A DNA stretch of 24,000 bases from Ectothiorhodospiraceae bacterium (lineage in GTDB: Bacteria > Pseudomonadota > Gammaproteobacteria > Nitrococcales > Halorhodospiraceae): the NCBI GenBank assembly GCA_003552625.1, contig PUNM01000072.1, positions 1 to 24,000 of the forward strand. The letters are read 5' to 3'. Below are positions 69 to 18,700 of this stretch, piece by piece. Both the position numbers and the translations under genes were made by a program. The notes beneath the pieces are model-generated. The model worked only from the letters and a program-made list of their open reading frames with translations, was not told the origin of the DNA and made no database searches. Numbering within the stretch: the first letter of the stretch is position 1; every line of letters starts with the position of its first letter.

Positions 69-656
69 CTAGGCGATGGAGGAGTACGCCTCGGAAACGG
101 CCTGAGCGGGAAAGCATTTGCGCTCCGCGGCCACCAGCTCCTTGGAGGCGATCATGCGCAAGGGCGGGCTGGCGTCATCGAGGCATTCATAAAGCGCCCG
201 GCATTCGGGGACATAGGTGCGGGCGAAATCCGGGTCGTGATCCGCGATGGAGGACAGGTTGCTGGCCAGGTCGGCACACTTGATCGTCTGCACCCACCCG
301 GGGGCCTGACTGAGCTGCTCGCGGGCACGGGCCTTGCGCTCACTGCGCGGCTCGTCGTCGCGCAGGGCCGGGCAGCTGAGCCACAGCACGCCGGCGCGCA
401 CCCGCTCGCCAAACTGGGCGCAGAGCATCCCTGGCTGCAGCCCGGTATCCTCGACTGCGTCGTGGAGCCAGGCGGTGATCAGCGCGTCGGTCGCCGTGGT
501 GCCGAGGCGGGTCAGGGCGGCCACCTCCGCAAGGTGCTTCCAGTACGGTTCCCCGGTGTAGCGACGGTACTGATCGCGATGGATGTACATCGCCAGGGTG
601 ATCGCCTCGTAGAGGCGCTGCTCGTCGTGCGCGGATGCGGGCTGGGACTCGGTCAT
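69..656 (-). CDS. HD-domain metal-dependent phosphohydrolase, RelA/SpoT-hydrolase-like (candidate small alarmone hydrolase)
   Basis: ORF 69..731 (-). The motif YWKHLAEVAAL...ITAWLHDAVEDT...FGERV matches the H..HD..ED signature of SpoT/Mesh1-type HD domains. I place the start at the internal ATG at 656 (MTESQ...), because the 25 codons upstream are basic and low-complexity. The start is uncertain. Confidence 0.7.
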   Translation of the reverse strand: MTESQPASAHDEQRLYEAITLAMYIHRDQYRRYTGEPYWKHLAEVAALTRLGTTATDALITAWLHDAVEDTGLQPGMLCAQFGERVRAGVLWLSCPALRDDEPRSERKARAREQLSQAPGWVQTIKCADLASNLSSIADHDPDFARTYVPECRALYECLDDASPPLRMIASKELVAAERKCFPAQAVSEAYSSIA

Positions 657-751
657 CGGGTGTGGGCGCCTGTGGTGTCGCTGGGTGATGTTCAGCGCGC
701 TACTGTACCTTCTGTAGGGGAGAATGCCCACGCAGGGAATGCGCGGGTTCC

Positions 752-801: not shown

Positions 802-1160
802 GGGGGCGACATGGCTTCGACGCAGGTCGCGAAACCTGAGGTGCATGCCGAGGAGACAGTCAACCTCGTAAAAAAGGCTGTACCGTAAAAATAGTTGCCA
901 ACGACGACAACTACGCCCTGGCGGCTTAAAACCCGCCAGCTGCTCCCGGTCGGTGCCTGTGCCGGTCGACGAGCAGTCATAGACACAGGATAGCGCTGTC
1001 CGGATACGCCTGGTCCGACAGTGCGAAACCCAACGGGCTCGCTGTCGAGGCGCCCTGCCGGTCGGGCGCTCGACCGCTAAAAAGAATAGACGCGGCTAAG
1101 CATGTAGATCCTTGGGCGTAGCTCCTGCGGACGCGGGTTCGATTCCCGCCGCCTCCACCA
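802..1160 (+). ncRNA. ssrA: tmRNA (transfer-messenger RNA, one-piece)
   Basis: The 5' GGGGGCG pairs with the 3' CGCCUCC-ACCA, giving an acceptor stem with a G3:U pair. The 3' end GGACGCGGGTTCGATTCCCGCCGCCTCCACCA is a T-arm plus CCA. Conserved blocks GGCTTCGACG, GTGCATGCCGAGG and CTAAGCATGTAG are present, along with an internal tag reading frame. Confidence 0.93.
897..929 (+). other. tmRNA tag-peptide reading frame ANDDNYALAA-stop
   Basis: GCC AAC GAC GAC AAC TAC GCC CTG GCG GCT TAA. It has the typical proteobacterial xxxxxYALAA degradation tag and is preceded by an A-rich resume region (AAAAATAGTT). Confidence 0.85.
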
Positions 1161-1184
1161 GAAATCAACTACTTAGCTCCAAAA

Positions 1185-1224
1185 GTGGCAGTGAATTGGC
1201 CTCTGCGGACGTCGATTCTGCCAC
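1185..1224 (+). terminator. imperfect stem-loop downstream of ssrA (possible terminator or processing site)
   Basis: GTGGCAG(tg)AAT ... ATTCTGCCAC inverted repeat starting 25 nt after the CCA end. The loop is about 18 nt and no U-tract follows, so the call is weak. Confidence 0.25.
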
Positions 1225-1321
1225 ATGATCGACCACTTCCCCTCGCGCCGTAACGGGGTCATCACGAGCCGATGGGCAGCCCCGGCCGACGGCTTGGCCC
1301 ATCCATCCGGACGGTTTGCGG

Positions 1322-1876
1322 CTAGTTGGGCCCTTCTGAGGGCGACTCCAAAAGGCAGGTCAGCTGCTCGGCGCGCATGGGGCGGCCCAGCCCGAAGCCC
1401 TGTCCGCACCTGCAACCGAGCTCCTGAAGGAACCTTTGCTGTGTTGGTGTCTCGATACCCTCGGCGACGGTGCCCAGCCCCAGCCCTTCGGAGAGGTTGA
1501 CGGCGACCCGCAGCGCATGCCCCCGATCAAGCCAGGCTCGGGCCTGCTGTGCGGCTTCGGCGACTACCCACTGGCCCACGCTGTCGATCAGCCCGGAGTC
1601 CTCCAGCATCGGGATGAAAACGCCCAGGAAGATCGTCCCGCGCTCGGGGTGTTCCCAGCGCAACAGGGCTTCCGCGCCAAGTATGCGGCCCGAGGCGAGT
1701 TCGGCTTGTGGCTGGTAGGCGAGGTAGAGCTCGCCGCGTGCCACGGCGTCGCGAAGATCCGCCTGTAGGCTGAGTTGTTCGCGAAGTCGGGCGTTTGCCT
1801 CGGTCTCGGCGGACTTGATCGTCGAGGCACCGGAGGCCACGGCGTGGCCAAGAGCGGCTTCCGCCAGCGCTGACAC
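1322..1876 (-). pseudogene. degenerate, internally deleted EAL-domain (c-di-GMP phosphodiesterase) remnant with an N-terminal hydrophobic segment
   Basis: ORF 1322..2134 (-). It aligns to the EAL domain through ELYLAYQP..GAEALLRWEHP..FIPMLEDSGLI..AVNLS. It then jumps straight to LGLGTVAEGIET..LGCRCGQGF. The central ~120 aa that normally carry the E(I/L)TE, DDFGTGYSS and KxD motifs are missing, although the frame is kept. Codons upstream of ~1876 have clearly lower third-position GC by hand count and run antisense into the pyp start. I therefore end the feature at the GTG at 1876. The true 5' end is unknown. Confidence 0.55.
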
Positions 1877-2042
1877 AAGAGTGAGGATAAGGGATATGCC
1901 TAGGGCGGTTACAGTCGCCGGGCAGGGTGATGGTAGGCAGGCGCCTCGCCCTGTACGCTCTTCAAGTACGGGTATGGTCGCTTGTCGGCGGAGCCGCTGT
2001 GGCCCTCCAGGATAAACAAAGGCGGAAAGGAGGATAATGGGC

Positions 2043-2465
2043 ATGGAGCACATCACCTTCGGGAGTGCCGACATCGAGAACGCCCTTGCAGGACTCGCGC
2101 AGGAGGAGTTCGACCGGTTGCCGTTCGGGGCCATTCAGGTGGACGAGCGCGGGACCATCCTGCGCTACAACGCCACGGAAGGGGCGCTTGTCGGCTACGA
2201 CCCCGAGGCGATGATCGGCCTGAACTTTTTCCGGGATGTGGCTCCCTGCACGGATTCACCAGCCTTCTATGGGCGTTTCCAGGAGGGGGTGGCGCGACGC
2301 GATCTCAATGTCCTTTTCGAGTACACCTTCGAGAAAGAGGATGTGGCCCCATTGCGGGTCAAGGTACAGATGAAACGGGCGCTCGGCGGCGATACCTATT
2401 GGATCTTCGTCAAGAGGGTTCTGCCGTTCGGGCAACCGCGGGCGATGGAGCCGGCAGGCGCTTAG
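2043..2465 (+). CDS. pyp: photoactive yellow protein (stand-alone PAS-fold blue-light photoreceptor)
   Basis: [13 protein letters not shown]...[18 protein letters not shown]...[17 protein letters not shown]...YWIFVKRV is colinear with H. halophila PYP as I recall it, at about 60% identity by hand alignment. Y42, E46 and the chromophore-binding C69 are conserved. The start is set at the second ATG (2043), where AAGGAGG (2027-2033) lies 9 nt upstream. The ATG at 2037 has only a 3-nt spacer. Confidence 0.9.
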
Positions 2466-2477
2466 ACCTGGTTTTGT

Positions 2478-3863
2478 TCACGGCCGCAGAACGACCCGAT
2501 TGCGCCCCCGGCGTTTGGCCTCGTAGAGGGCGGCGTCGGCCCGCTGGATGACGGCCTCGGCGTCCGTTTCGCCGCGATGTTCCGTGACGCCGGCACTGAT
2601 CGTCACCGCCGCGTGGTCATCAAGCCGTGCCTGTTCCACCTGCCCGCGGAGCGTCTCGGCGATCTGCCGGGCATCGTTGGCGGTCGTTTCCGGGAGGAGG
2701 ACGAGGAATTCCTCGCCGCCCCACCGGACGACGAGGTCTGTTTTCCGGCAGCGCGCCTCGATGATCCGGCCGATCTGGCGCAAAAGTCGGTCGCCGTGCT
2801 GGTGGCCGTAGCGGTCGTTGTGCGCCTTGAAATGGTCGATGTCGAGCATGATGACCGCGTAAGGGGTGCCGAGCCGTTCCGCACGGGCCTGCTCATGGGT
2901 CAGGACCGGGTCCAGGCGGCGTCGGTTGGCCAGGCCGGTGAGCGGGTCGTAGTGGGCCTGGCGCTCGAGTTCCGCCTCCAGTTCCTTCTGGCGCGTGATG
3001 TCGTTGAGGTAGCCGAGCAGGGCGACGACGCGCCCGCACTCGTCGTGCTCGATCAGGCTCGATTCCTGTACCCAGCGGTATTCGCCGTCGCGATGCCGGG
3101 TGCGGTAGGGAGATGGCTGAAAATAGGTACGGGGATCCGTGGAGCTGGTAACTGCGTCGGTCTCCTCGCTGACTAGCCGCGCCTGGTCATCAGGATGCAC
3201 CAGTTCGATGAAGTCGCGTGGAGGAGTGGTGAGAGCTTCAGGCCGGTAGCCGAGAATCGGTTCGACGTTATCCGACGCGAAGCGGATCGGCCACCGGCCA
3301 ATGATGGGGTCCCACCGAAAGACCATGGTTGGACCGGTTACAAAGAGACGGCGCTCCCGCTCAAGAGCCAGACGGATCCTGCGCAACTCCAGTTCGTCCG
3401 TGACGATGCCGCTAAACTTTTGAAGGATCCGGAGTTGGCGACTGGACAGCTCCCGGGGGGTCCGGTCTTTGATGCAAATGGCTCCGATCGGCTGTGCGTC
3501 CTTCGACCACAGGGGTACGCCGGCGTAAAAGCGAACAGGCGGTTCTTGGGTAGCGAGCGGATGATTACGGAACGTCTCGCTCTGCCAGGTGTCTGTAATC
3601 ACGAGGGCTTCACCCGAGTGCACGGGGTAGGCGCAGAGCGATGCATCGCGCGGCTGTTCCTGTGCTTCAAGGCCCAGCGAGGCCAGGTACCACTCGCGGT
3701 CACGGTCGAGAAGGGAGATGGCCGCCATGGGCGTTTCGAATACGGCGCCCAGAAGCTGAGCAAGCCGCTGGAACGCTGGCTCGGGTTCCGCGTCGAGCGC
3801 CTCGTAGCGTTCCAGCGCGGCCAGGCGATGCGCTTCGCTATCCGGGGGATTAGGCTGATGCAT
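2478..3863 (-). CDS. GAF-PAS-GGDEF diguanylate cyclase
   Basis: 461-aa ORF. The N-terminal GAF domain shows RLAALERYEALD...ISLLDRDREWYLAS...RFYAGVPL. A central PAS domain follows (FRWDP...LGYRPEAL...HPDD...GEYRW). The C-terminal GGDEF domain has an intact GGEEF active site and an RxxD I-site (RKTD) five residues upstream. Confidence 0.9.
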   Translation of the reverse strand: MHQPNPPDSEAHRLAALERYEALDAEPEPAFQRLAQLLGAVFETPMAAISLLDRDREWYLASLGLEAQEQPRDASLCAYPVHSGEALVITDTWQSETFRNHPLATQEPPVRFYAGVPLWSKDAQPIGAICIKDRTPRELSSRQLRILQKFSGIVTDELELRRIRLALERERRLFVTGPTMVFRWDPIIGRWPIRFASDNVEPILGYRPEALTTPPRDFIELVHPDDQARLVSEETDAVTSSTDPRTYFQPSPYRTRHRDGEYRWVQESSLIEHDECGRVVALLGYLNDITRQKELEAELERQAHYDPLTGLANRRRLDPVLTHEQARAERLGTPYAVIMLDIDHFKAHNDRYGHQHGDRLLRQIGRIIEARCRKTDLVVRWGGEEFLVLLPETTANDARQIAETLRGQVEQARLDDHAAVTISAGVTEHRGETDAEAVIQRADAALYEAKRRGRNRVVLRP

Positions 3864-4021
3864 AGGCGCTCAAGGTGGTGTCGAGGGGAGATTCCTGGAC
3901 CGCTTACAGGTCAGTGTGGCGGTAGAATCCCCCACGGGCAAATGGCTGAGCGTGACCAGGGAGTCGCGGCCCTGAACCGGCTAAGGACCGAGCATTCCGG
4001 GATCAAGGGGGCAACAATCCG

Positions 4022-4411
4022 ATGACAGTTTCCGAAAAGCGGCCGGTGGTCCTCTACGACGGCCAGTGCCCCGTCTGTAAGCGTGAGATCAACCTCTACC
4101 AGCGCATCGACCGGGACGGGGCCGTTGAATGGCGGGATTTGCACGCCCCGGGCGCGCTAGAAGGCACCGGATTGAGCTGGGAACAGGCGATGAAGCGCTT
4201 TCACTGCCTGGATGTGGATGGCCGTTTGCGCGGTGGTGTCGATGCGTTTACGCTCGTCTGGAGCTACTTGCCCTACTGGCGGTGGCTCGCCTACATCGTT
4301 CGTGGTCTCGGCCTTAAACGACTGCTGGAGCCGCTCTATATCCAGTTCGCAAAGCGCCGCTATCGGCGCCGATGCAACCCGGAGCACGGCTGCGCCGGAC
4401 CGCCGCAGTAG
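4022..4411 (+). CDS. thiol-disulfide oxidoreductase, DCC family (DUF393)
   Basis: 129-aa ORF with the N-terminal YDGQCPVCKREI motif (DxxCxxC), as in DCC-family proteins. Confidence 0.75.
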   Translation: MTVSEKRPVVLYDGQCPVCKREINLYQRIDRDGAVEWRDLHAPGALEGTGLSWEQAMKRFHCLDVDGRLRGGVDAFTLVWSYLPYWRWLAYIVRGLGLKRLLEPLYIQFAKRRYRRRCNPEHGCAGPPQ

Positions 4412-4471
4412 GGCGCGACGGTCTTCACCCCCGTAGCCGGTGATAACGCAGGAGAGAGGGACGGACTACCG

Positions 4472-4966
4472 TTAAACCTTGTGCTTGAGCAGCCGCTCGC
4501 GCTGGCGCTGCCAATCCTGCTCTTTCTTGTCGGCCCGCTTGTCGTGTTTCTTCTTGCCCTTGGCAAGGCCGATCTCCAGCTTGGCCCGGCCGCGCTTCCA
4601 GTAAAGCTTGAGCGGCACCACCGTATAGCCTGCCCGGTCCACTGACCCCGCAAGCCGGGCGATCTCCCGCCGATGGAGCAGCAGCTTACGCGTGCGGGTA
4701 GGGTCGGGGCGGACGTGCGTGGAGGCCGTCGCAAGCGGAGTGATATTGCATCCAATGAGCCACGCTTCGCCCCGGCGGACGATTACGTGGCTCTCGGTCA
4801 GGTTCACCCGCTTGGCACGCAGCGACTTGACCTCCCAGCCCTCCAGGGCGAGGCCGGCCTCCAGGCGCTCCTCGATGAAGAAGTCGAAGCCAGCCTTGCG
4901 GTTGACGGCGACGACGTTGTCCTGACTTTGCTTGTCTTTTCCGGCTTTTTTGCTCACGGCGCGCAT
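4472..4966 (-). CDS. smpB: SsrA-binding protein SmpB
   Basis: ORF 4472..5092 (-). The start is set at the internal ATG at 4966 ([10 protein letters not shown]...), giving 164 aa. Typical SmpB blocks are present: [37 protein letters not shown] and [26 protein letters not shown]. Confidence 0.92.
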
Positions 4967-5081
4967 TGTACGGGTCGGCGCCGATTGCGCAAAGCGCCCA
5001 CCCACAGGAGGTTGCCGGGCGGAGCATGGATCGTGACAATAGCGCCCCGGATTCCCAGGACCGAGGAGCGGGAAGCGCCCC

Positions 5082-5528
5082 ATGACGACCATCAGCCGCA
5101 GCGAACTCGTCCCCTACACGGCCGTTGAGATTTACGACCTGGTCAATGATGTGGTCCGTTATCCGGAGTTCATCCCCTGGTGTAAAGAGTGCGAGATCAT
5201 CACCACCAGCGAGGATACAACGCGGGCGCGCATGACCTTTGCTAAGGGGGGTATGGAGAAATCCTTCGTCACGCACAACCGCCATCAGCGGGGCAAGATG
5301 ATCGATATCCGCCTCGTCGAGGGGCCGTTTCGACGTCTGGAGGGGTACTGGCGCTTCCGGGATCTCGGCGATAGTGCGTCCAAGGTAACGTTGGATATGG
5401 AGTTCGAGTTCTCCAACCGGATCGTTGCCTACGCCTTCGGCAAGGTCTTTACCCAGGTGGCAAACACGCTGGTGGACTCGTTCATCAAGCGGGCGGAGGA
5501 GATCTATGGTAAGCGTGACCTCCTCTAG
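5082..5528 (+). CDS. ratA: SRPBCC-fold RatA/PasT (Coq10-like) protein
   Basis: 148 aa. The sequence [28 protein letters not shown] is typical of RatA/YfjG. It is divergent from smpB and followed by rnfH, as in E. coli. Confidence 0.85.
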
Positions 5529-5841: not shown

Positions 5842-6182
5842 CGCTCGGTCCAGCGGTCCTCGATCTCGACGACGGTATCGTCCTCGAAGAAGAGCGTCAG
5901 CCGCTTGCGCTGCTCTTCGCTGCCGCGCCGCTCGTAGAGGTAGTCCCAGCGGTTTTCGGCAAAGGCGTGCTCGAGGACGGGCTCGCCGAGTATGCGCCGG
6001 ACGTCCGCCCGGCTCATGCCCTCTTCGACGCGGGCGATATCCTCGTCCTCGAGCAGGTTCCCTTGTTCGACCTCAAGCGGCTGCGCGAACGGGAATTGCC
6101 CGCCGCAACCCGCCAGCAGTACGGCCGCGGAAAAGTATAATAAGAATAACTTGCATTTGGATGGTATCGTCATGCCAAGCAT
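5838..6182 (-). CDS. bamE: outer-membrane protein assembly factor BamE (SmpA/OmlA lipoprotein)
   Basis: 114 aa. It has a lipoprotein signal peptide with the lipobox LLAGC, followed by the SmpA/OmlA motif GMSRADVRRILGEP. Divergent fur is the same arrangement as Pseudomonas omlA-fur. An alternative ATG lies at 6173. Confidence 0.85.
   Translation of the reverse strand: MLGMTIPSKCKLFLLYFSAAVLLAGCGGQFPFAQPLEVEQGNLLEDEDIARVEEGMSRADVRRILGEPVLEHAFAENRWDYLYERRGSEEQRKRLTLFFEDDTVVEIEDRWTER
6136..6154 (+). promoter_or_regulatory. candidate fur promoter -10 (perfect TATAAT, 6136-6141) overlapping a Fur-box-like 19-mer
   Basis: TATAATAAGAATAACTTGC matches the Fur consensus GATAATGATAATCATTATC at 12 of 19 positions by hand. 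It lies about 75-90 nt upstream of the fur GTG, inside the bamE signal-peptide codons. I found no convincing -35 element. Confidence 0.35.
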
Positions 6183-6227
6183 GGTAGCCTAATGGGCATA
6201 CCGACCAACAGTGGTTGAGGGGGAGCT

Positions 6228-6665
6228 GTGGACGCAGGTGGCTTACGCAAGGCGGGCCTGAAGGTCACACTGCCAAGGATGAAGATCCTGGAGGTGCTGC
6301 AGGCGAGCGAGCAGCGTCATGTATCGGCGGAAGAGGTCTACCGCGCTCTGCTCGACGCCGGCGAGGACATTGGCCTCGCCACGGTCTACCGGGTGCTTAC
6401 GCAGTTTGAGACGGCCGGCCTCCTGGTGCGACATAACTTCCAGGGCAGTCATTCCGTCTTCGAGCTCAACAACACCTCCCACCACGACCACATCGTCTGT
6501 GTCGAGTGTGGCCGGGTGGAAGAGTTTATCGACGAGACGATCGAGCAACGCCAGCGGGAGACGGCAAAAGAGCATAGCTTTCGCATGACCGGGCATTCGC
6601 TCGTGCTCTATGGGGTCTGCGCGACTTGCCGGGAGGCATCTGCCGACGAGTTCAGTGCCGGCTAG
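6228..6665 (+). CDS. fur: ferric uptake regulator Fur
   Basis: 145 aa with a GTG start and GAGGGGGA upstream. It is colinear with E. coli Fur: LRKAGLKVTLPRMKILEVL, HVSAEEVY, IGLATVYRVLTQFETAGL, HHDHIVCVECGRVEEF. Confidence 0.93.
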   Translation: MDAGGLRKAGLKVTLPRMKILEVLQASEQRHVSAEEVYRALLDAGEDIGLATVYRVLTQFETAGLLVRHNFQGSHSVFELNNTSHHDHIVCVECGRVEEFIDETIEQRQRETAKEHSFRMTGHSLVLYGVCATCREASADEFSAG

Positions 6666-6672
6666 GGCCAGC

Positions 6673-8355
6673 CTAGCATGCGGACTTCACCCCGCCGCCC
6701 CGCTCGAGCATCTCTCGAGCTGCATTGCGTTCATGGCTGGTGATCTCCAGCCCGCCGAGCATGCGCGCGATCTCTTCGACCCGCTGTTCGTCATTGAGCG
6801 GCGACACCTGTGTGCGGGTGCCTTCCCCGGTGTCGGTCTTGGCGACGTGGAAGTGATGGCGGGCTTGTGCCGCCACCTGCGGGAGATGGGTGACACACAG
6901 GACCTGGTAGCGGCTGCCGACGGTGCGCAGCAGGCGGCCTACGACTTCTGCAACGGCGCCGCCGATTCCGGCGTCGGCTTCATCGAAGATCAGCGTCGGC
7001 ACCGTAGCCGAGCGGTTAACGGTGGCCACCTGAATGGCCAGGCCGATTCGTGAGAGTTCGCCGCCGGAAGCGATCTTGTTCAGCGGTCCGAGACTTTGCC
7101 CGCTGTTTGTCCGCACCAGCAGTTCGATCCGGTCCAGGCCGTGGACTGACGGGGACGCTTCCGGCTCGAAGGATACCTGCGGCTGGACTTCCGCGCCCTG
7201 CATGCCGAGTTCGCCGAGCAGCTCACCGACCTCGCTCTGAAGCCGTTCCGCCGCCCGTTGCCGCTCCCTGGAGAGCGCTTCAGCCGCATCGCGGTAGCGC
7301 GTCTCCGCCTCTTGTCGCTCCGAGCGCAGCGTGGCAAGGCGCTCCTCCGCATTTGCCAACCGCTCGGCCTCGGCCTGCAGGTGTTCCAGGGTTTCCGGGA
7401 GGTTGTCCACATCCACCCGATGCTTGCGCGCCAGATCCCGAAGGTGCTGGATCTGCTCATCGAGTTCGGCGAGACGCTGTGGGTCGATTTCTAGGCTGTC
7501 CGCAAAGCTGCGCAGCGTATGGCACCCTTCTTCCAGGTGGGCCAGTGCGCTTTGGAAAAGGTCGGCGGCCTCGCCAAGGGCCGGGTCCAGCTCCCGGCGC
7601 TCCTCAAGCTCGCGGATAGCGCGGCCGAGCCGGGTTTGAGCGGCCTCGTCGGCATCGCTGAGCGCCTGCAGCTGCCCCTGCGCCAAGTCGATGAGGGACT
7701 CGGCGTGGGCGAGTCGCTGGTGCTCGGCCTCAAGTGCCGCGATGCCGTCCCGGCTTGGTGCCGCCCGCTCAAGCTCGTCGATCTGGTGGTGCAGCAGGGC
7801 AAGCCGTTCGTCGTAGTCGTCGCTGCTGCCAGCGAGTGTCTCAAGCTCCCGGTCAATGGCTCGCAGCTCCTGGTGAACGGCCGCCACTGCCGAACGCTGC
7901 GCCTCAGTGCCCGCAAAGGCGTCGAGCAGCTCGCGCTGGGCAGCGGGCCGTATCAGCGACTGGTGGGCGTGTTGTCCATGGATATCCACGAGCTGTTCGC
8001 CCAGCTCCCGCAGCATCTGCAGGGCGACGGGCGTTCCGTTGATGAAACCGCGGGAGCGGCCGCTGCCCTGGACCACGCGGCGGACCAGGATCTCATCGTC
8101 GCCGAGGTCGCGCTCATCCAGCCACTGTTGAACCCCCTCGTTGGGGGGGTCGAAGATGGCGCTGACCTCAGCTCGTTCAGCGCCCGGGCGAATGATTTCC
8201 GCATTGGCGCGGTCGCCGAGGCAGAGCGCAAGAGCGTCCAGCAGGATCGATTTGCCCGCGCCCGTCTCACCGGTGAGTGCGTGCATGCCATCGCCAAGTT
8301 CCAGATCGAGCGTATCGACGATGGCGAAATCGCGAATGTGGATCGCTCGCAGCAC
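6673..8355 (-). CDS. recN: DNA repair protein RecN
   Basis: 560 aa with a GTG start and GAGGAGG 5 nt upstream. It has an N-terminal Walker A (LTGETGAGKSILLDAL), a long coiled-coil and a C-terminal SMC signature (ASGGELSRIGLA...LIFDEADAGIGG). Confidence 0.95.
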   Translation of the reverse strand: MLRAIHIRDFAIVDTLDLELGDGMHALTGETGAGKSILLDALALCLGDRANAEIIRPGAERAEVSAIFDPPNEGVQQWLDERDLGDDEILVRRVVQGSGRSRGFINGTPVALQMLRELGEQLVDIHGQHAHQSLIRPAAQRELLDAFAGTEAQRSAVAAVHQELRAIDRELETLAGSSDDYDERLALLHHQIDELERAAPSRDGIAALEAEHQRLAHAESLIDLAQGQLQALSDADEAAQTRLGRAIRELEERRELDPALGEAADLFQSALAHLEEGCHTLRSFADSLEIDPQRLAELDEQIQHLRDLARKHRVDVDNLPETLEHLQAEAERLANAEERLATLRSERQEAETRYRDAAEALSRERQRAAERLQSEVGELLGELGMQGAEVQPQVSFEPEASPSVHGLDRIELLVRTNSGQSLGPLNKIASGGELSRIGLAIQVATVNRSATVPTLIFDEADAGIGGAVAEVVGRLLRTVGSRYQVLCVTHLPQVAAQARHHFHVAKTDTGEGTRTQVSPLNDEQRVEEIARMLGGLEITSHERNAAREMLERGGGVKSAC

Positions 8356-13472: not shown

Positions 13473-14630
13473 ATGGCGAAGCGGGATTACTACGAGGCAC
13501 TGGGGGTTTCCAAGAACGCCTCCGACGCCGAAATCAAGAAGGCCTATCGGCGCATGGCCCAGAAGTACCACCCGGACCGCAATCCGGGGGACGAGGAGGC
13601 CGCCGAGCGTTTCAAGGAGGTCAAGGAGGCCTACGAGGTCCTCTCCGATGCACAGAAGCGGGCCGCCTACGACCAGTTCGGCCACGCCGGAGTCGATCCT
13701 TCGGCCGGAGGTGGCCCGCGCGGCTACGGCGGTGGCGCCGGGGGACCCGGCGGTCCGGACTTCTCCGACATCTTCTCCGACGTTTTTGGGGACATCTTCG
13801 GCTCCGGCGGTGGTCGGGGTGGCCGGGCGCGGGCGTTCCGCGGTGCCGATCTGCGCTACACACTGGAGCTCAGCCTCGAGGATGCCGTGCGCGGGACCGA
13901 GGAGCAGATCCAGGTTCCTACGCACGTCGAGTGTGATGCCTGCGAGGGCTCCGGGTCGAAAGCCGGTTCCAAGCCGCAGACGTGCCCGACGTGTAAAGGG
14001 CATGGCGACGTGCGGGTCCAGCAGGGCTTTTTCTCCATCCAGCAGACTTGCCCGCGCTGCCACGGCGAGGGCTCGGTCGTCACCGATCCCTGTCCGAAGT
14101 GCCGTGGCCGTGGACGGGTCCAGGACCGAAAGACGCTCAACGTCCGGATTCCCGCTGGGGTCGATACGGGCGACCGGATCCGTCTTGCCGGCGAGGGCGA
14201 GCCGGGCGAGCGAGGCGGGCCGCCTGGGGATCTCTACGTGCAGGTCGCTGTCAAGGAGCATGAGTTCTTCGAGCGCGACGGTGCGGACCTGCACTGTGAG
14301 GTGCCCGTGGATATCGTGACGGCCGCTTTGGGCGGCGAGGTGGAGGTGCCGACCCTCGATGGGCGGGTGAACCTGCGCATCCCGCCGGGCACCCAGCCCA
14401 ACCGGGTCTTCCGGATGCGCGGCAAGGGTGTCAAGCCTGTACGGGGAAACCGACAGGGGGATCTTCTCTGCCGTATCCATGTGGAAACGCCGGTCAACCT
14501 GACCAAGCGTCAGCGTGAGCTCCTTGAGGAGTTCCAGCAGACCCTGAAGAACACCGGCGGTAAGCATAACCCGCACACCTCCTCCTGGTTGGATAAGGTC
14601 AAGAGCTTTATCGAGGAGTGGCGGCTGTGA
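13473..14630 (+). CDS. dnaJ: molecular chaperone DnaJ (Hsp40)
   Basis: 385 aa. It has a J-domain with HPDRNPGD, a G/F-rich linker and four CxxCxGxG zinc-finger repeats ([32 protein letters not shown]). Confidence 0.97.
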
Positions 14631-15463
14631 CCCTTGGGATCGGCATCATTGGCGCCGCTGGCCGTATGGGCCGGATGCTGGTGGAGGCCAGTCAGCAACT
14701 GGATGGTTTCCACCTCGCAGCGGCCTGTGACCGGGCTGGGGGGAGTGCCGTCGGTCGGGACGCGGGGGAGCTGGCCGGTCTGGGTGCCCTCGGCGTGCAG
14801 GTGGCGGAAAAGGTGACGGAGGCCGTGCAGGCTGCGGACGTGGTCATCGACTTCAGCCTGCCCGATGCGACGGAGCGAGTAGCGAGCGCCTGCGCCGATG
14901 CAGGTCGCCCCCTTGTGCTCGGCACCACCGGTCTCGGGCCTGAGCAGCAGGCCGCCGTGGACCGCCTTGCCGAGCAAGTGGCGGTCGTGCAGGCGGCCAA
15001 CTATTCGACAGGCGTAACCCTTCTCACCGCGCTAGTCGAGCAGGCGGCACACGCGCTCGGCGACTCGGCGGATGTGGAGATCATCGAGGCTCACCATCGG
15101 CACAAGGTGGATGCGCCGTCGGGGACGGCGCTGCGTCTCGGTGAGGCGGTCGCCGGGGTGCTTGGTCGGGATCTTCACGAGCACGCGGTCTATGGTCGCG
15201 AGGGACAGGAGGGGCCGCGGGATCGCCGGACGATCGGCTTCGAGACCATTCGTGCCGGGGATATCGTCGGCGAGCATACCGTGCTCTTCGCGGGGGACGG
15301 GGAGCGTCTGGAGCTTACCCACAAGGCGTCGAGGCGTTCCACATTCGCTTTCGGGGCGTACCGAGCCGCAATGTGGGCATCGCAACAACCCCCGGGGCGT
15401 TACGACATGCGGGATGTGCTGGGAATCGCTGGATCCGCGGCCGGGATAGAGTCACCACGGTAG
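14627..15463 (+). CDS. dapB: 4-hydroxy-tetrahydrodipicolinate reductase
   Basis: ORF 14618..15463. It has the [12 protein letters not shown] Rossmann motif and [16 protein letters not shown] prefer the GTG at 14627, which forms a GTGA overlap with the dnaJ stop and has GAGGAG 8 nt upstream. GTG 14618 is also possible. Confidence 0.9.
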
Positions 15464-15631
15464 CCCCATCGATTCCTGCTCGTAGGTCCGCCGCATAATC
15501 TCGTGGGCGTGCCGCTCAGCGGTCTCGCGGTTGGTGTAACCTTCGCCGCGAGCGATCGGGCTACCGTCGCCGCGGAGGACCACGAAGGCCCAGTCACCGC
15601 TGTCTTCCTCCCGCCACAGTTCGACACGCAT
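15452..15631 (-). CDS. small YegP/DUF1508-like protein (59 aa), not in the supplied ORF track
   Basis: Hand translation of the minus strand gives [59 protein letters not shown]-stop. The pattern W.F.L....G..IA.GEGY......A resembles the DUF1508 repeat. Third-position GC is high. GAGG lies 3 nt before the ATG. The 3' end overlaps the dapB 3' end convergently by 12 nt. Confidence 0.45.
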   Translation of the reverse strand: MRVELWREEDSGDWAFVVLRGDGSPIARGEGYTNRETAERHAHEIMRRTYEQESMGLPW

Positions 15632-15760
15632 CGGCCTCGTGCTCTTTTCGGTGCGTTTTTGCGCTGTTTCTTTAATCGGTAGCAGACAGCGCGGCTGTTT
15701 CCAGAGGCGATGGGCCGCACGGGGGCTCGTGGGCCCCCGCGGGGGCGTGGGGGCGCAGGG

Positions 15761-18700
15761 CTAAGCTGGAGCTTTTGTACCTGCGAGATGCTCCGCCTGG
15801 TAGCGGCGCAGGAAGTAGTCGATGGTTTCGGTGCGGATCTGGATCGATCCGCTCGGCCGGTTCTCGTCCAAGTCCTTGAAACAAAAGTACGGCGTGCCGG
15901 ACTGCTCGATAATCGCCTCGATGGTGGCGTAGATCGGGGCGTCGTGGCCGCACTTGAAGTTCGACAGCTCCACCGCGACCAGGTTGGGGTGGCGCGCGAT
16001 GAACTTCGCAGCCCACAGCTTGCGTGAGCTGTGCTCGGAGAAATCGTGCTTCCAGACATCGTCAATCGCCAGGGCGGACGAGATCCAGCCCGCGCGCACC
16101 TCGGCGCCGAAGAGCCGCTCCAGGGTGGCGGCGTCGCGGGGCAGGGCGTCCTGCCAGAAGATGGGATAGCCCTTGCGCTGCAGCTCATCGAGAATACCGT
16201 GATTGATTCCCGGGTCGTTGTGGTAGGGGCGGCCGAGGACGCCGATACCGATCCGTCCCTCTTCCTCGAGCCGGGCCAGGGTCTCCGCCTGGGATGCCTC
16301 AAGCCGCTGATGGAACGCTTCCAGGGCGGCCAGCCCTCGGGCAACAGCCCGTTCGGATTCGGCGAGGCTGATGCCGAACTCCGGCCCCCAGTCGGCGGCC
16401 ATCTGTTCGGCGCAGAGTGAGGGATCGTCAAGATTGACGAGCGTCTTCTTGAACGCCACCCCGTGCTCGGCGAAAAGGTCTCCCTCACGCCGAAAGGCCG
16501 CGTGGGTTGCCTCCGCGGTGCCGGGGACCGTGGGGCAAGCCTGGGAGGCGAGTGTGTCTTCGAGCGCGCTCGGCAGACTCTTGACCATGGGAAAGAAGAT
16601 GTGGGTCAGTGGCCGCCGTGCGTGCTTGCGAAAGAGCAGGTCGTGGACGTGCGGGATGCCCAGCTTGCTTGGGAAGCAGGGATCGATGCTGCCGCGGTTG
16701 GCGCCTCGTCGGTAGAGTTCGGGGTCCGTGGTGTCGGAGAAGACGATCCCCCGATCCGGAATGCCCAGCGCAGCGAAGTAGGCCTGGAAAAACGGGGCGC
16801 AGGCGTAGAGGTTAAGCACCCGCGGCAGCCCGATCCGCGCATTGCGGCGGCGTTCCATCGCTGCGCGACGGCGCGCGCGTCCCGGCCAGAGCGCCTCCAT
16901 GGCGTTGGGTCGGGGAGTGGGGTCCGCCACATTGTCCACTCGCGGTGGCCGGAAAACCTCCCGGGCGGCCTCATCCAGATGGTTGGGGTTACTGGCGGCG
17001 GTCTCGTCGAGCTCCGCCTTGATCCGCTTCATGGAGGCGACGTCTTCCACTTCGCCCTGCTTGCAGGTGGCGACGATAAGGCGTCGGTACCCGGCTGGCA
17101 GTGGGACGGCGGAGTTTGCCGGGGCGCTCTCGGCGGCTGCAGCTGAGTCTCCGGTGGCTACATCGATGAACGTACGTAGGCAGAGATTGCTGCAAAACCG
17201 GCAACGGGTCCGCTCGTCACGGATCGTGTGGTGTTGCAGGCGACGTGCTCGTTCGATGCCGATAAAGCGGCTACGCCGGCCCTCCTGGTGCAGCCGGCGT
17301 GCCTCCAGGGCGGTGCCGATGGCCCCGGACTCGCCGCAGTGGCGGTGGACCTGAATCTCGCAGTCCGCATCGACCCGGGCGAAGCGGTCCTTTAGGTAAT
17401 CCACCTGCGCTTTTACCGCCGCCAGGTTGCGCTGTGTTCCACCCTGGAGAACGAACCGCGTTCCAAGCTCGGCCGGGTTGGGAATCTGAGCCACATAGAG
17501 CCAGATGTTCTTGGGAAGCACCGCAGCCAGGCCGGCAAGGATCTCGGCAGGTTGCCACCCCTTGCGCTGGAAATCGACGATGTCCGACTGGAGGAAGACC
17601 GCGCAGCCGTGATTGAATTCCGGCATCGCCTCGGCACCGAGTGCCACCTCCGCGAAATCGTCGAGTTCAATCCCGAAGGCGCGGGCCGTCGCCTGGAGGA
17701 AATAGCCGTTGCCTGCCGAGCATTGGGTGTTCAGCCGGAAGTCGCGAACCCGACCGTCACGCAGGAACATGAGCTTGATATCCTGCCCGCCGACATCCAC
17801 GATGCAATCCGTTCCCGGGTAGAATTGCTCGCAGGCGTGGGCGTGAGCCACCGTTTCCACCAGGGCCGTATCGCCGTGGAGTACGTCTCGGATGATGTCC
17901 TTGGCGTAGCCGGTCGTTCCCACGCCGAGCACCTGAAGTTCTGCACCCTGGCGGGTGACAGCGCTCTCCAGCTCGCCGAGCAGGCCGACTGCGTCTTCGA
18001 TCGGGTTGCCGCCGGAGAGGCGGTAGGCCTTGGCGAGCACCTCTGCATCCGGGCTCAGCAGTACGCCCTTGGTCGATGTCGAGCCGGCATCGATGCCGAT
18101 GTAGGCCTGTACCTGTTCGCCAGGCTGGAAACGTGCCGGCGTCCACGCCGGCGGCTGGTATTGCTCGAGGAAGTCGCGGCGCTCGTCGTCGTCCGCGACG
18201 AGCGGCGCCAGCCCCTCGGAGTGCCCGCGCCGGCGCTGCTCGGCCAGCCAGTGCTGCAGCGCGCCCTGCCCGTGGAAGGCGCCGGCCTCTGGATCCTCAT
18301 CGAGTTCGCTCCGGCCGAACTGAACCGCGCCCAGCGCTGCGAAGTACTGGGCCTGATCCGGGACGGTGATCGCGTCCTCGACCGGCTCGCCGGGCGTTAC
18401 ACCGCGATCCTCCCAAAGGTCGCTGATCTGCTGCCGCCAGCACTCCTGCAGGCCCCGGATGTAGGTGTTGGGGCCGCCGAGCAGCAGGACCCGTGGCCGC
18501 AGCGTGTGTCCGCGGGTGAGCACGGAGAGGTTCTGCTGCACGATCGCCTCGAACAGGGATGCCATCAGGTCCTCGGCCGGGACACCCTGCTTTTGCAGGG
18601 AGTTGATGTCGGTCTCCGCGAAGACACCGCACTTGCCTGCAACCGGGTGCACGGTGTGGCCGTGGTAGCCCATCTCCCCGAGTCGCGCTGGTGGGATGGC

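Follow-up and report, generated by a model that had tools for sequence, protein, structure and literature searches.

A second, divergent photoactive yellow protein in Halorhodospira, encoded beside a diguanylate cyclase gene in a rearranged ssrA-smpB region

We describe a gene for a stand-alone photoactive yellow protein (PYP) in a stretch of 24,000 nucleotides, called the window here, which is taken from contig C21 of a Halorhodospira genome (2.48 Mb in 168 contigs); the contig begins at window position 1. The gene, pyp, lies among genes related to the turnover of cyclic di-GMP (c-di-GMP). A sequence-only reading of the window had placed it divergent from a gene with an EAL domain and convergent with a diguanylate cyclase gene, and the positions of the open reading frames (ORFs) agree with this description:

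1322 to about 1876 (within ORF 1322-2134), minus strand: EAL remnant, a pseudogene-like piece of a PAS-GGDEF-EAL gene, recognised by Pfam and alignment
1877-2042, plus strand: non-coding stretch 5' of pyp, with a GGAGG ribosome-binding site at 2029-2033; the pyp promoter is presumed to lie here
2043-2465, plus strand: pyp, encoding a stand-alone PYP of 140 amino acids, identified by TIGR02373, pocket residues, tree and the ratio of non-synonymous to synonymous substitution rates (dN/dS)
2466-2477: spacer of 12 nt separating the stop codon of pyp from that of the convergent cyclase gene
2478-3863, minus strand: gene for a GAF-PAS_3-GGDEF diguanylate cyclase of 461 amino acids, an orphan paralogue, recognised by Pfam

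The three-gene arrangement is real and no artefact of assembly, because independently assembled contigs carry the same order: one of 3395 bp from SRR490150 matches window 1132-4526 at 99.97% identity, and another of 1237 bp from ERZ27266014 matches window 1477-2713 at 99.6% identity. SRR490150 stems from this strain or from one almost identical to it.

The product of window 2043-2465 is a genuine PYP. It scores 165.5 bits against the TIGR02373 'photo_yellow' model, for which the curated equivalog cut-off is 143.05 (165.1 bits in the genome search), and it aligns end to end with the structures of Halorhodospira halophila PYP at about 60% identity, the top match in the PDB being 1F98. Y42, E46 and C69, which are invariant columns of the alignment, are all present, as a pairwise comparison with 1F98 confirms, and the pocket residues I31, F62, V66, A67, P68 and F96 (the list is that of PMC12826048) are retained. 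Elsewhere the protein departs from the H. halophila pattern: T50 is replaced by V and R52 by Y, a one-residue loop insertion accompanies the loss of M100, and a tail of about 15 amino acids extends beyond the usual C-terminus. These changes at 50, 52 and 100 are not exotic, since Met100, Thr50 and Arg52 are listed as natural tuning positions, with A50 and L52 as the family consensus (PMC12826048). The ORF contains a PAS/PYP domain only and is bounded by stop codons on both sides; it is therefore not a fused, multidomain PYP of the Ppr or Ppd type, and was rightly described as stand-alone.

The gene is under purifying selection. Comparison with its closest homologues gives dN/dS values of 0.05-0.19, against 0.07-0.12 for PYP-A orthologues, with synonymous divergence (dS) near saturation and the values correspondingly rough. 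An allele in another sample is 99% identical and differs at two synonymous positions and one non-synonymous position. A scan for consensus promoters upstream of pyp returned no sites, and nucleotide homology with the related pyp loci begins just 4-14 nt 5' of the ATG.

In a tree of 94 PYPs, with support measured by the Shimodaira-Hasegawa-like approximate likelihood ratio test (SH-aLRT), the window PYP groups with four others in a small clade (SH-aLRT 92), apart from the PYP1 group and from H. halophila PYP2, whose own, distinct clade is fully supported (100%). Its clade mates comprise the second PYPs of H. neutriphila and of genome G005, and two metagenome proteins, P0003 and P0004 (71% and 66% identical, respectively). 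The loop insertion is common to all five and the C-terminal tail to four, the G005 protein stopping at the usual C-terminus. The terminal branch of the window PYP is long, at 0.44 against 0.12-0.19 for three of the four clade mates. Judged by this tree, Halorhodospira carries three PYP lineages, the clade of the window PYP being the third. A metagenome scan for further members of the clade found nothing above 65% identity, and its loci were used to extend the neighbourhood survey described below.

The closest relative is the H. neutriphila DSM 15116 protein (MBK1726717.1; P0002 / L064), which is 72% identical and shares with the window PYP the residue V50, the single-residue insertion that goes with the loss of M100, the C-terminal extension and the co-existence of a canonical PYP1 in the same genome; it differs in having Q52 where the window protein has Y52. 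This protein is already in the published set of 984 sequences; the window PYP is a further member of a known family.

The five pyp genes of the clade lie in five different neighbourhoods. The second pyp of H. neutriphila adjoins a gene of the histone-deacetylase family and has no GGDEF or EAL gene in the 10 kb downstream, the upstream side being cut by the contig end after 782 nt. The P0003 gene has gltX upstream and genes for phosphoenolpyruvate (PEP) carboxylase, kaiC, kaiB and a DCC1-like protein downstream, and the second pyp of G005 adjoins an Lnb_N gene and an uncharacterised gene. P0004 is encoded downstream of PAS-GGDEF, EAL and truncated PAS-MCP genes; it is the only clade mate with GGDEF/EAL genes upstream, and the architecture differs from that of the window. 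Outside the clade, the H. halophila-type PYP2 loci have pyp after flavocytochrome c and AsmA genes, and the complete genome of the relative G006 has this Hhal_1333-type AsmA-pyp context. An association of pyp with GGDEF/EAL genes was thus not found at the H. neutriphila, P0003, G005 or H. halophila-type PYP2 loci. The sequence-only reading had nominated the adjacent cyclase as the partner of PYP from gene order, and that nomination is not borne out by relatives in which pyp-GGDEF adjacency is not conserved.

The P0004 locus (L060, 3921-8423) resembles another variable region with truncated sensory genes. Upstream of pyp and on the same strand are a PAS-GGDEF gene (498 amino acids, with a partial GGDEF match) and an EAL gene (249 amino acids) whose start overlaps it, followed by a PAS-MCP fragment of 240 amino acids, while a helix-turn-helix (HTH) gene and small ORFs lie downstream of pyp. 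At the P0003 locus (L056, 2658-2804) there is an EAL fragment of 48 amino acids 5 kb upstream of pyp, beside a CheB-CheR-PAS fusion gene.

With regard to the chromophore, the window has neither tal nor pcl, as had been noted, but both occur elsewhere in the genome. There are two pyp genes in all, the other being a canonical copy on contig C45 (214.5 bits) that is directly followed by pcl and then by a lyase gene (G000:C45:9086-12287; L001/L002), the same operon as the classical pyp-pcl-tal of H. halophila. The pcl product matches the TIGR02372 4-coumarate-CoA ligase model with 428.8 bits against a cut-off of 334.7. The lyase matches the aromatic ammonia-lyase family PF00221 with 472 bits, stays under the hutH cut-off, and carries His-Leu in the motif YHLCSGVG, which we take to be the selectivity switch of tyrosine ammonia-lyase (TAL). 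Because the genome has pcl and tal behind the C45 pyp, holo-PYP should be feasible in this organism; the proviso that a genome without these genes would make it unlikely does not apply.

The ligase and the tyrosine-ammonia-lyase-type enzyme encoded on C45 would probably load the window apoprotein with p-coumarate. Blue light would then drive isomerisation of the chromophore, which a thioester links to Cys69, and Glu46, in proton transfer, and Tyr42 are expected to act in their usual roles. As R52 and M100 are both lost, recovery is expected to be slow: the change from Arg52 to Tyr and the loss of Met100 would favour a long-lived signalling state, fitting slow responses rather than phototaxis.

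Of the two c-di-GMP genes that flank pyp, only the cyclase looks intact. Pfam and the translation confirm its earlier description as a GAF-PAS-GGDEF protein with a GGEEF site and an RxxD I-site: the GAF domain spans residues 27-152, PAS_3 195-285 and GGDEF 303-456, the last matching the whole of PF00990 (profile positions 1-161 of 161) with 162.7 bits. The active site reads RWGGEEF, and an I-site, RKTD, stands five residues before GGEEF (RKTD-LVVRW-GGEEF). By these motifs the enzyme is predicted to synthesise c-di-GMP. Its top match in the PDB is 4ZMU, a diguanylate cyclase chain (E 3e-56), with the best stretch at query residues 4-163, that is, the GAF domain, and a second stretch besides. 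We take 4ZMU to be PA2771 / Dcsbis of Pseudomonas aeruginosa, a GAF-GGDEF protein; compared with that chain, the window cyclase has an additional PAS_3 domain between GAF and GGDEF. The cyclase is otherwise an orphan. Apart from the protein itself, none of the 120 best-scoring matches in a database of 5.8 billion proteins exceeds about 36% full-length identity, and no relative in the genus exceeds about 43%; the top genus relatives (39-43% identical) are in open frames of 741-759 amino acids that also bear an EAL region.

The EAL neighbour is a dead gene remnant and not a degenerate receptor that is still whole. ORF 1322-2134 covers only positions 2-93 and 201-236 of the 236 in the Pfam EAL profile, and so encodes an incomplete barrel. 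In alignment with its closest intact relative, a PAS-GGDEF-EAL protein of 590 amino acids (G007:C41), the ORF is homologous only from about residue 90 onwards, the gene being 5'-truncated, and an in-frame deletion of 107 amino acids, with its junction near 1488, takes out ELEITE, DDFGTGYS and KIDRAF, the ELxxE, DDFGTG and KxD catalytic motifs. The nearest relatives are proteins of 590-900 amino acids at 52-66% identity, and the gene caller on the independent contig predicts 184 amino acids for the remnant. The earlier description of a degenerate EAL gene thus applies to a fragment, truncated as well as internally deleted.

One idea considered and rejected was that the cyclase gene and the EAL remnant are halves of a single GAF-PAS-GGDEF-EAL gene split by the arrival of pyp; it arose from proteins in the 741-759-amino-acid frames that align to both. 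These are two different genes, because they belong to different paralogue families and the remnant keeps a GGDEF tail of its own. The remnant is closest to G007:C41, G007:C1 and G005:C25 (58-66%) and the cyclase to G002:C32, G008, G003:C28 and G001:C22 (39-43%); these relatives of the cyclase match the remnant at just 43-48%. In an H. halophila-like relative (L146, contig G007:C41) an intact counterpart of the remnant (6171-7943) and a GAF-PAS...GGDEF cyclase paralogue of 1103 amino acids (13791-16862) lie within 6 kb of each other, in the opposite order to that of the window.

Because pyp on the plus strand converges with the cyclase gene and diverges from the EAL remnant, both on the minus strand, it shares no transcription unit with either. 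A terminator scan of the 12-nt junction between pyp and the cyclase gene found no intrinsic terminator, and the junction folds no better than shuffled sequences (z +1.24, -0.38).

The wider setting of these genes is the interval between ssrA and smpB, bounded by the following features:

802-1160, plus strand: ssrA, encoding a tmRNA with the tag ANDDNYALAA, one edge of the cassette (ARAGORN; Rfam RF00023, 230.6 bits)
4022-4411, plus strand: gene for a DCC1-like thiol-disulfide oxidoreductase, the other inner edge of the cassette (Pfam PF04134, 98 bits)
4472-5092, minus strand: smpB, as listed among the ORFs, its real start probably being internal (tblastn, 77-90% identity to relatives)

In eight relatives smpB and ssrA are co-directional and about 100 nt apart, with ssrA downstream. 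In the window, ssrA is inverted, converges with smpB and stands 3.3 kb away, and the interval holds the EAL remnant, pyp, the cyclase gene and the DCC1-like gene, none of which is near ssrA in relatives. Synteny with relatives resumes from smpB rightwards, where ratA, rnfH, bamE, fur and recN follow in conserved order. Throughout the genus the DCC1-like gene occurs as a single copy, which in every relative lies elsewhere, and the 3' flank of ssrA differs in each relative examined, holding an ArsP fragment, HTH genes with a Cas3-like helicase, or an SSF symporter. We therefore regard the pyp-cyclase-EAL locus as a lineage-specific rearrangement in the variable flank of ssrA, and this flank as a rearrangement hot spot in Halorhodospira at which sensory genes are shuffled. 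A classical island integrated at ssrA was considered and rejected, there being no direct repeat of the ssrA 3'-end and no integrase in the window; rearrangement or inversion rather than integration is supported. No homologue of the small stand-alone HD_4 (RelA/SpoT-hydrolase-like) protein encoded at window 69-731 on the minus strand, diverging from ssrA at the start of the contig, was found near ssrA in relatives. A copy of the DCC1-like gene (66% identical; L056, 13600-13995) lies 5 kb downstream of the P0003 pyp, past the PEP carboxylase and kaiC-kaiB genes, and as the window copy lies 1.5 kb from pyp, this may be a residual linkage.

The sequence-only reading had proposed that recurrent GGDEF/EAL neighbours be sought across pyp homologues. 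We surveyed 160 other pyp loci, 80 from species-representative genomes (flanks of up to 10 kb) and 80 from metagenomes, with a detector that recovered both c-di-GMP genes of the window as a positive control. No positional enrichment beside pyp was found among them: the genome loci carry GGDEF/EAL genes at 1.0 per 100 kb in the 0-2 kb next to pyp, compared with 2.4 over their full extent, and the metagenome loci at 2.7 in both cases. A GGDEF/EAL gene lies within 1.5 kb of pyp at about 8 of the 160 loci (5%), and immediately beside it in Pandoraea eparura, L123 and L171, among others. In the 2.48 Mb of the genome under study there are about 23 GGDEF/EAL genes, or 0.9 per 100 kb, which we estimate at some 1% of all genes, so that the chance of a c-di-GMP gene as immediate neighbour of pyp is estimated at about 2%, for a single case and for genes that tend to cluster. 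Some of the regional abundance around pyp has a conserved, non-adjacent origin that inflates the regional counts. Idiomarina-type genomes (L110, L119, L126, L131, L141) keep a GGDEF-EAL gene for a protein of about 520 amino acids some 8.5 kb downstream of pyp, and Halomonadaceae (L078, L102, L117, L125, L137) keep one about 5.7 kb upstream.

On balance we favour the interpretation that the window pyp encodes a functional, second and divergent stand-alone PYP, that its juxtaposition with c-di-GMP genes arose by a single local rearrangement, and that gene order names no partner for it; the partner is probably encoded elsewhere and not next door. Gene order fails to identify the partner because the juxtaposition is lineage-specific, the EAL gene is dead, and the cyclase is an orphan with sensors of its own, encoded by a gene that converges on pyp. 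Several observations weigh against this interpretation. Around pyp, GGDEF/EAL genes reach a regional density of about 2.5 per 100 kb, some 2.5 times the value for the genome under study. In two of the five clade neighbourhoods, those of the window and of P0004, such genes lie no more than three genes away from pyp; we put the probability of this at about 0.03, assuming a GGDEF/EAL gene frequency of about 1%. The slow recovery expected of the window protein rests on the behaviour of mutants of H. halophila PYP1. Finally, the links between PYP and c-di-GMP at the level of the family are as real as the sequence-only reading supposed: Dohmen et al. 2025 (PMC12826048) report 15 fusions of PYP with GGDEF, and among the predicted pyp operons of other lineages (n=113) GGDEF occurs in 29 and EAL in 22. 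The 29 GGDEF operons among 984 PYPs are of the same order as the 5% of our survey. Such family-level points keep a role for a neighbouring cyclase alive without singling out the one in the window.

That role would be for the light-activated PYP to bind the adjacent GAF-PAS-GGDEF cyclase, for example by a PAS-PAS contact, and to modulate c-di-GMP synthesis, as a two-protein version of Ppd. The adjacency is reproduced in both independent assemblies, the cyclase looks catalytically intact in its GGEEF, RxxD and DxLT motifs, one clade mate is encoded downstream of PAS-GGDEF and EAL genes, other pyp genes have immediate GGDEF/EAL neighbours, the family has its fusions and operons, and PYP reportedly regulates biofilm in Idiomarina. 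However, the two genes converge and form no operon, the closest relatives of the PYP are without the adjacency, the cyclase bears its own sensor domains and has no orthologues through which co-occurrence could be shown, the locus is a rearrangement junction, and the 160 loci show no enrichment. We consider such binding unlikely, though it is the alternative we would take most seriously. Slightly more doubtful is the stronger proposal that the third-clade PYP acts in trans on the adjacent cyclase, so that separate proteins would make up a pathway from blue light to c-di-GMP; if true, the cyclase would be the first partner identified for any PYP of the single-domain type.

Two further readings concern the gene itself and its transcript. 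The long terminal branch, the altered tuning residues and the unstable surroundings of pyp, with a degraded gene next to it, are what might be expected of a redundant duplicate that is decaying and has no sensory role, but the reading frame is intact and preceded by a strong ribosome-binding site, the core pocket residues are all retained, and both the low dN/dS and the nearly identical allele from another sample speak for constraint, which makes decay very improbable. Least probable of all, in our estimate, is a coupling at the level of RNA, whereby convergent transcripts of pyp and the cyclase gene would overlap and antisense pairing or polymerase collision would make their expression reciprocal. 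The spacer of just 12 nt, with no terminator-like site and no hairpin stabler than shuffled sequences, would permit it; Rho-dependent termination is nevertheless possible, and a juxtaposition so recent and unique is unlikely to be a selected regulatory design.

The preferred interpretation, a functional PYP with its partner probably elsewhere, bears on a long-standing gap, the partner of single-domain PYPs, for which a physically adjacent cyclase is a cheap hypothesis. Signalling by stand-alone PYPs through GGDEF/EAL proteins was already proposed in print in December 2025 (PMC12826048), and to that proposal this locus adds a weak, non-conserved pyp-cyclase association. Ppd of Thermochromatium tepidum (PYP-PHY-GGDEF-EAL) and the predicted operons resemble the window in linking PYP genetically to c-di-GMP enzymes, the proposed output being blue-light control of biofilm (PMC12826048). 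In the window, by contrast, PYP and its c-di-GMP neighbours are encoded by separate genes that converge or diverge and form no operon, the EAL gene is dead and the link is not conserved. The PYP of Idiomarina loihiensis (about 56-60% identical, with a fast photocycle of 0.23 s) is likewise stand-alone, and a biofilm phenotype but no partner is reported for it; the nearest GGDEF-EAL gene in Idiomarina-type loci is the distant one noted above.

Within the genus, H. halophila PYP1 (Hhal_1818; PDB 2PHY/1NWZ, with the T50V mutant as 1F98) mediates negative phototaxis and has a photocycle of about 0.5 s. The window PYP has the same Y42/E46/C69 pocket and differs in V50, Y52, the absence of M100, the C-terminal tail and the lack of adjacent pcl and tal genes. 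H. halophila PYP2 (Hhal_1333, WP_011814122.1), with a slow photocycle of about 50 s, is likewise a second stand-alone paralogue with a short C-terminal tail, but it belongs to the other clade, keeps T50, R52 and M100, and lies in the flavocytochrome c - AsmA - pyp context. A natural PYP with V50, Y52 and loss of M100, from a genome in which the canonical operon is present as well, offers a convenient variant for the study of spectral and kinetic tuning.

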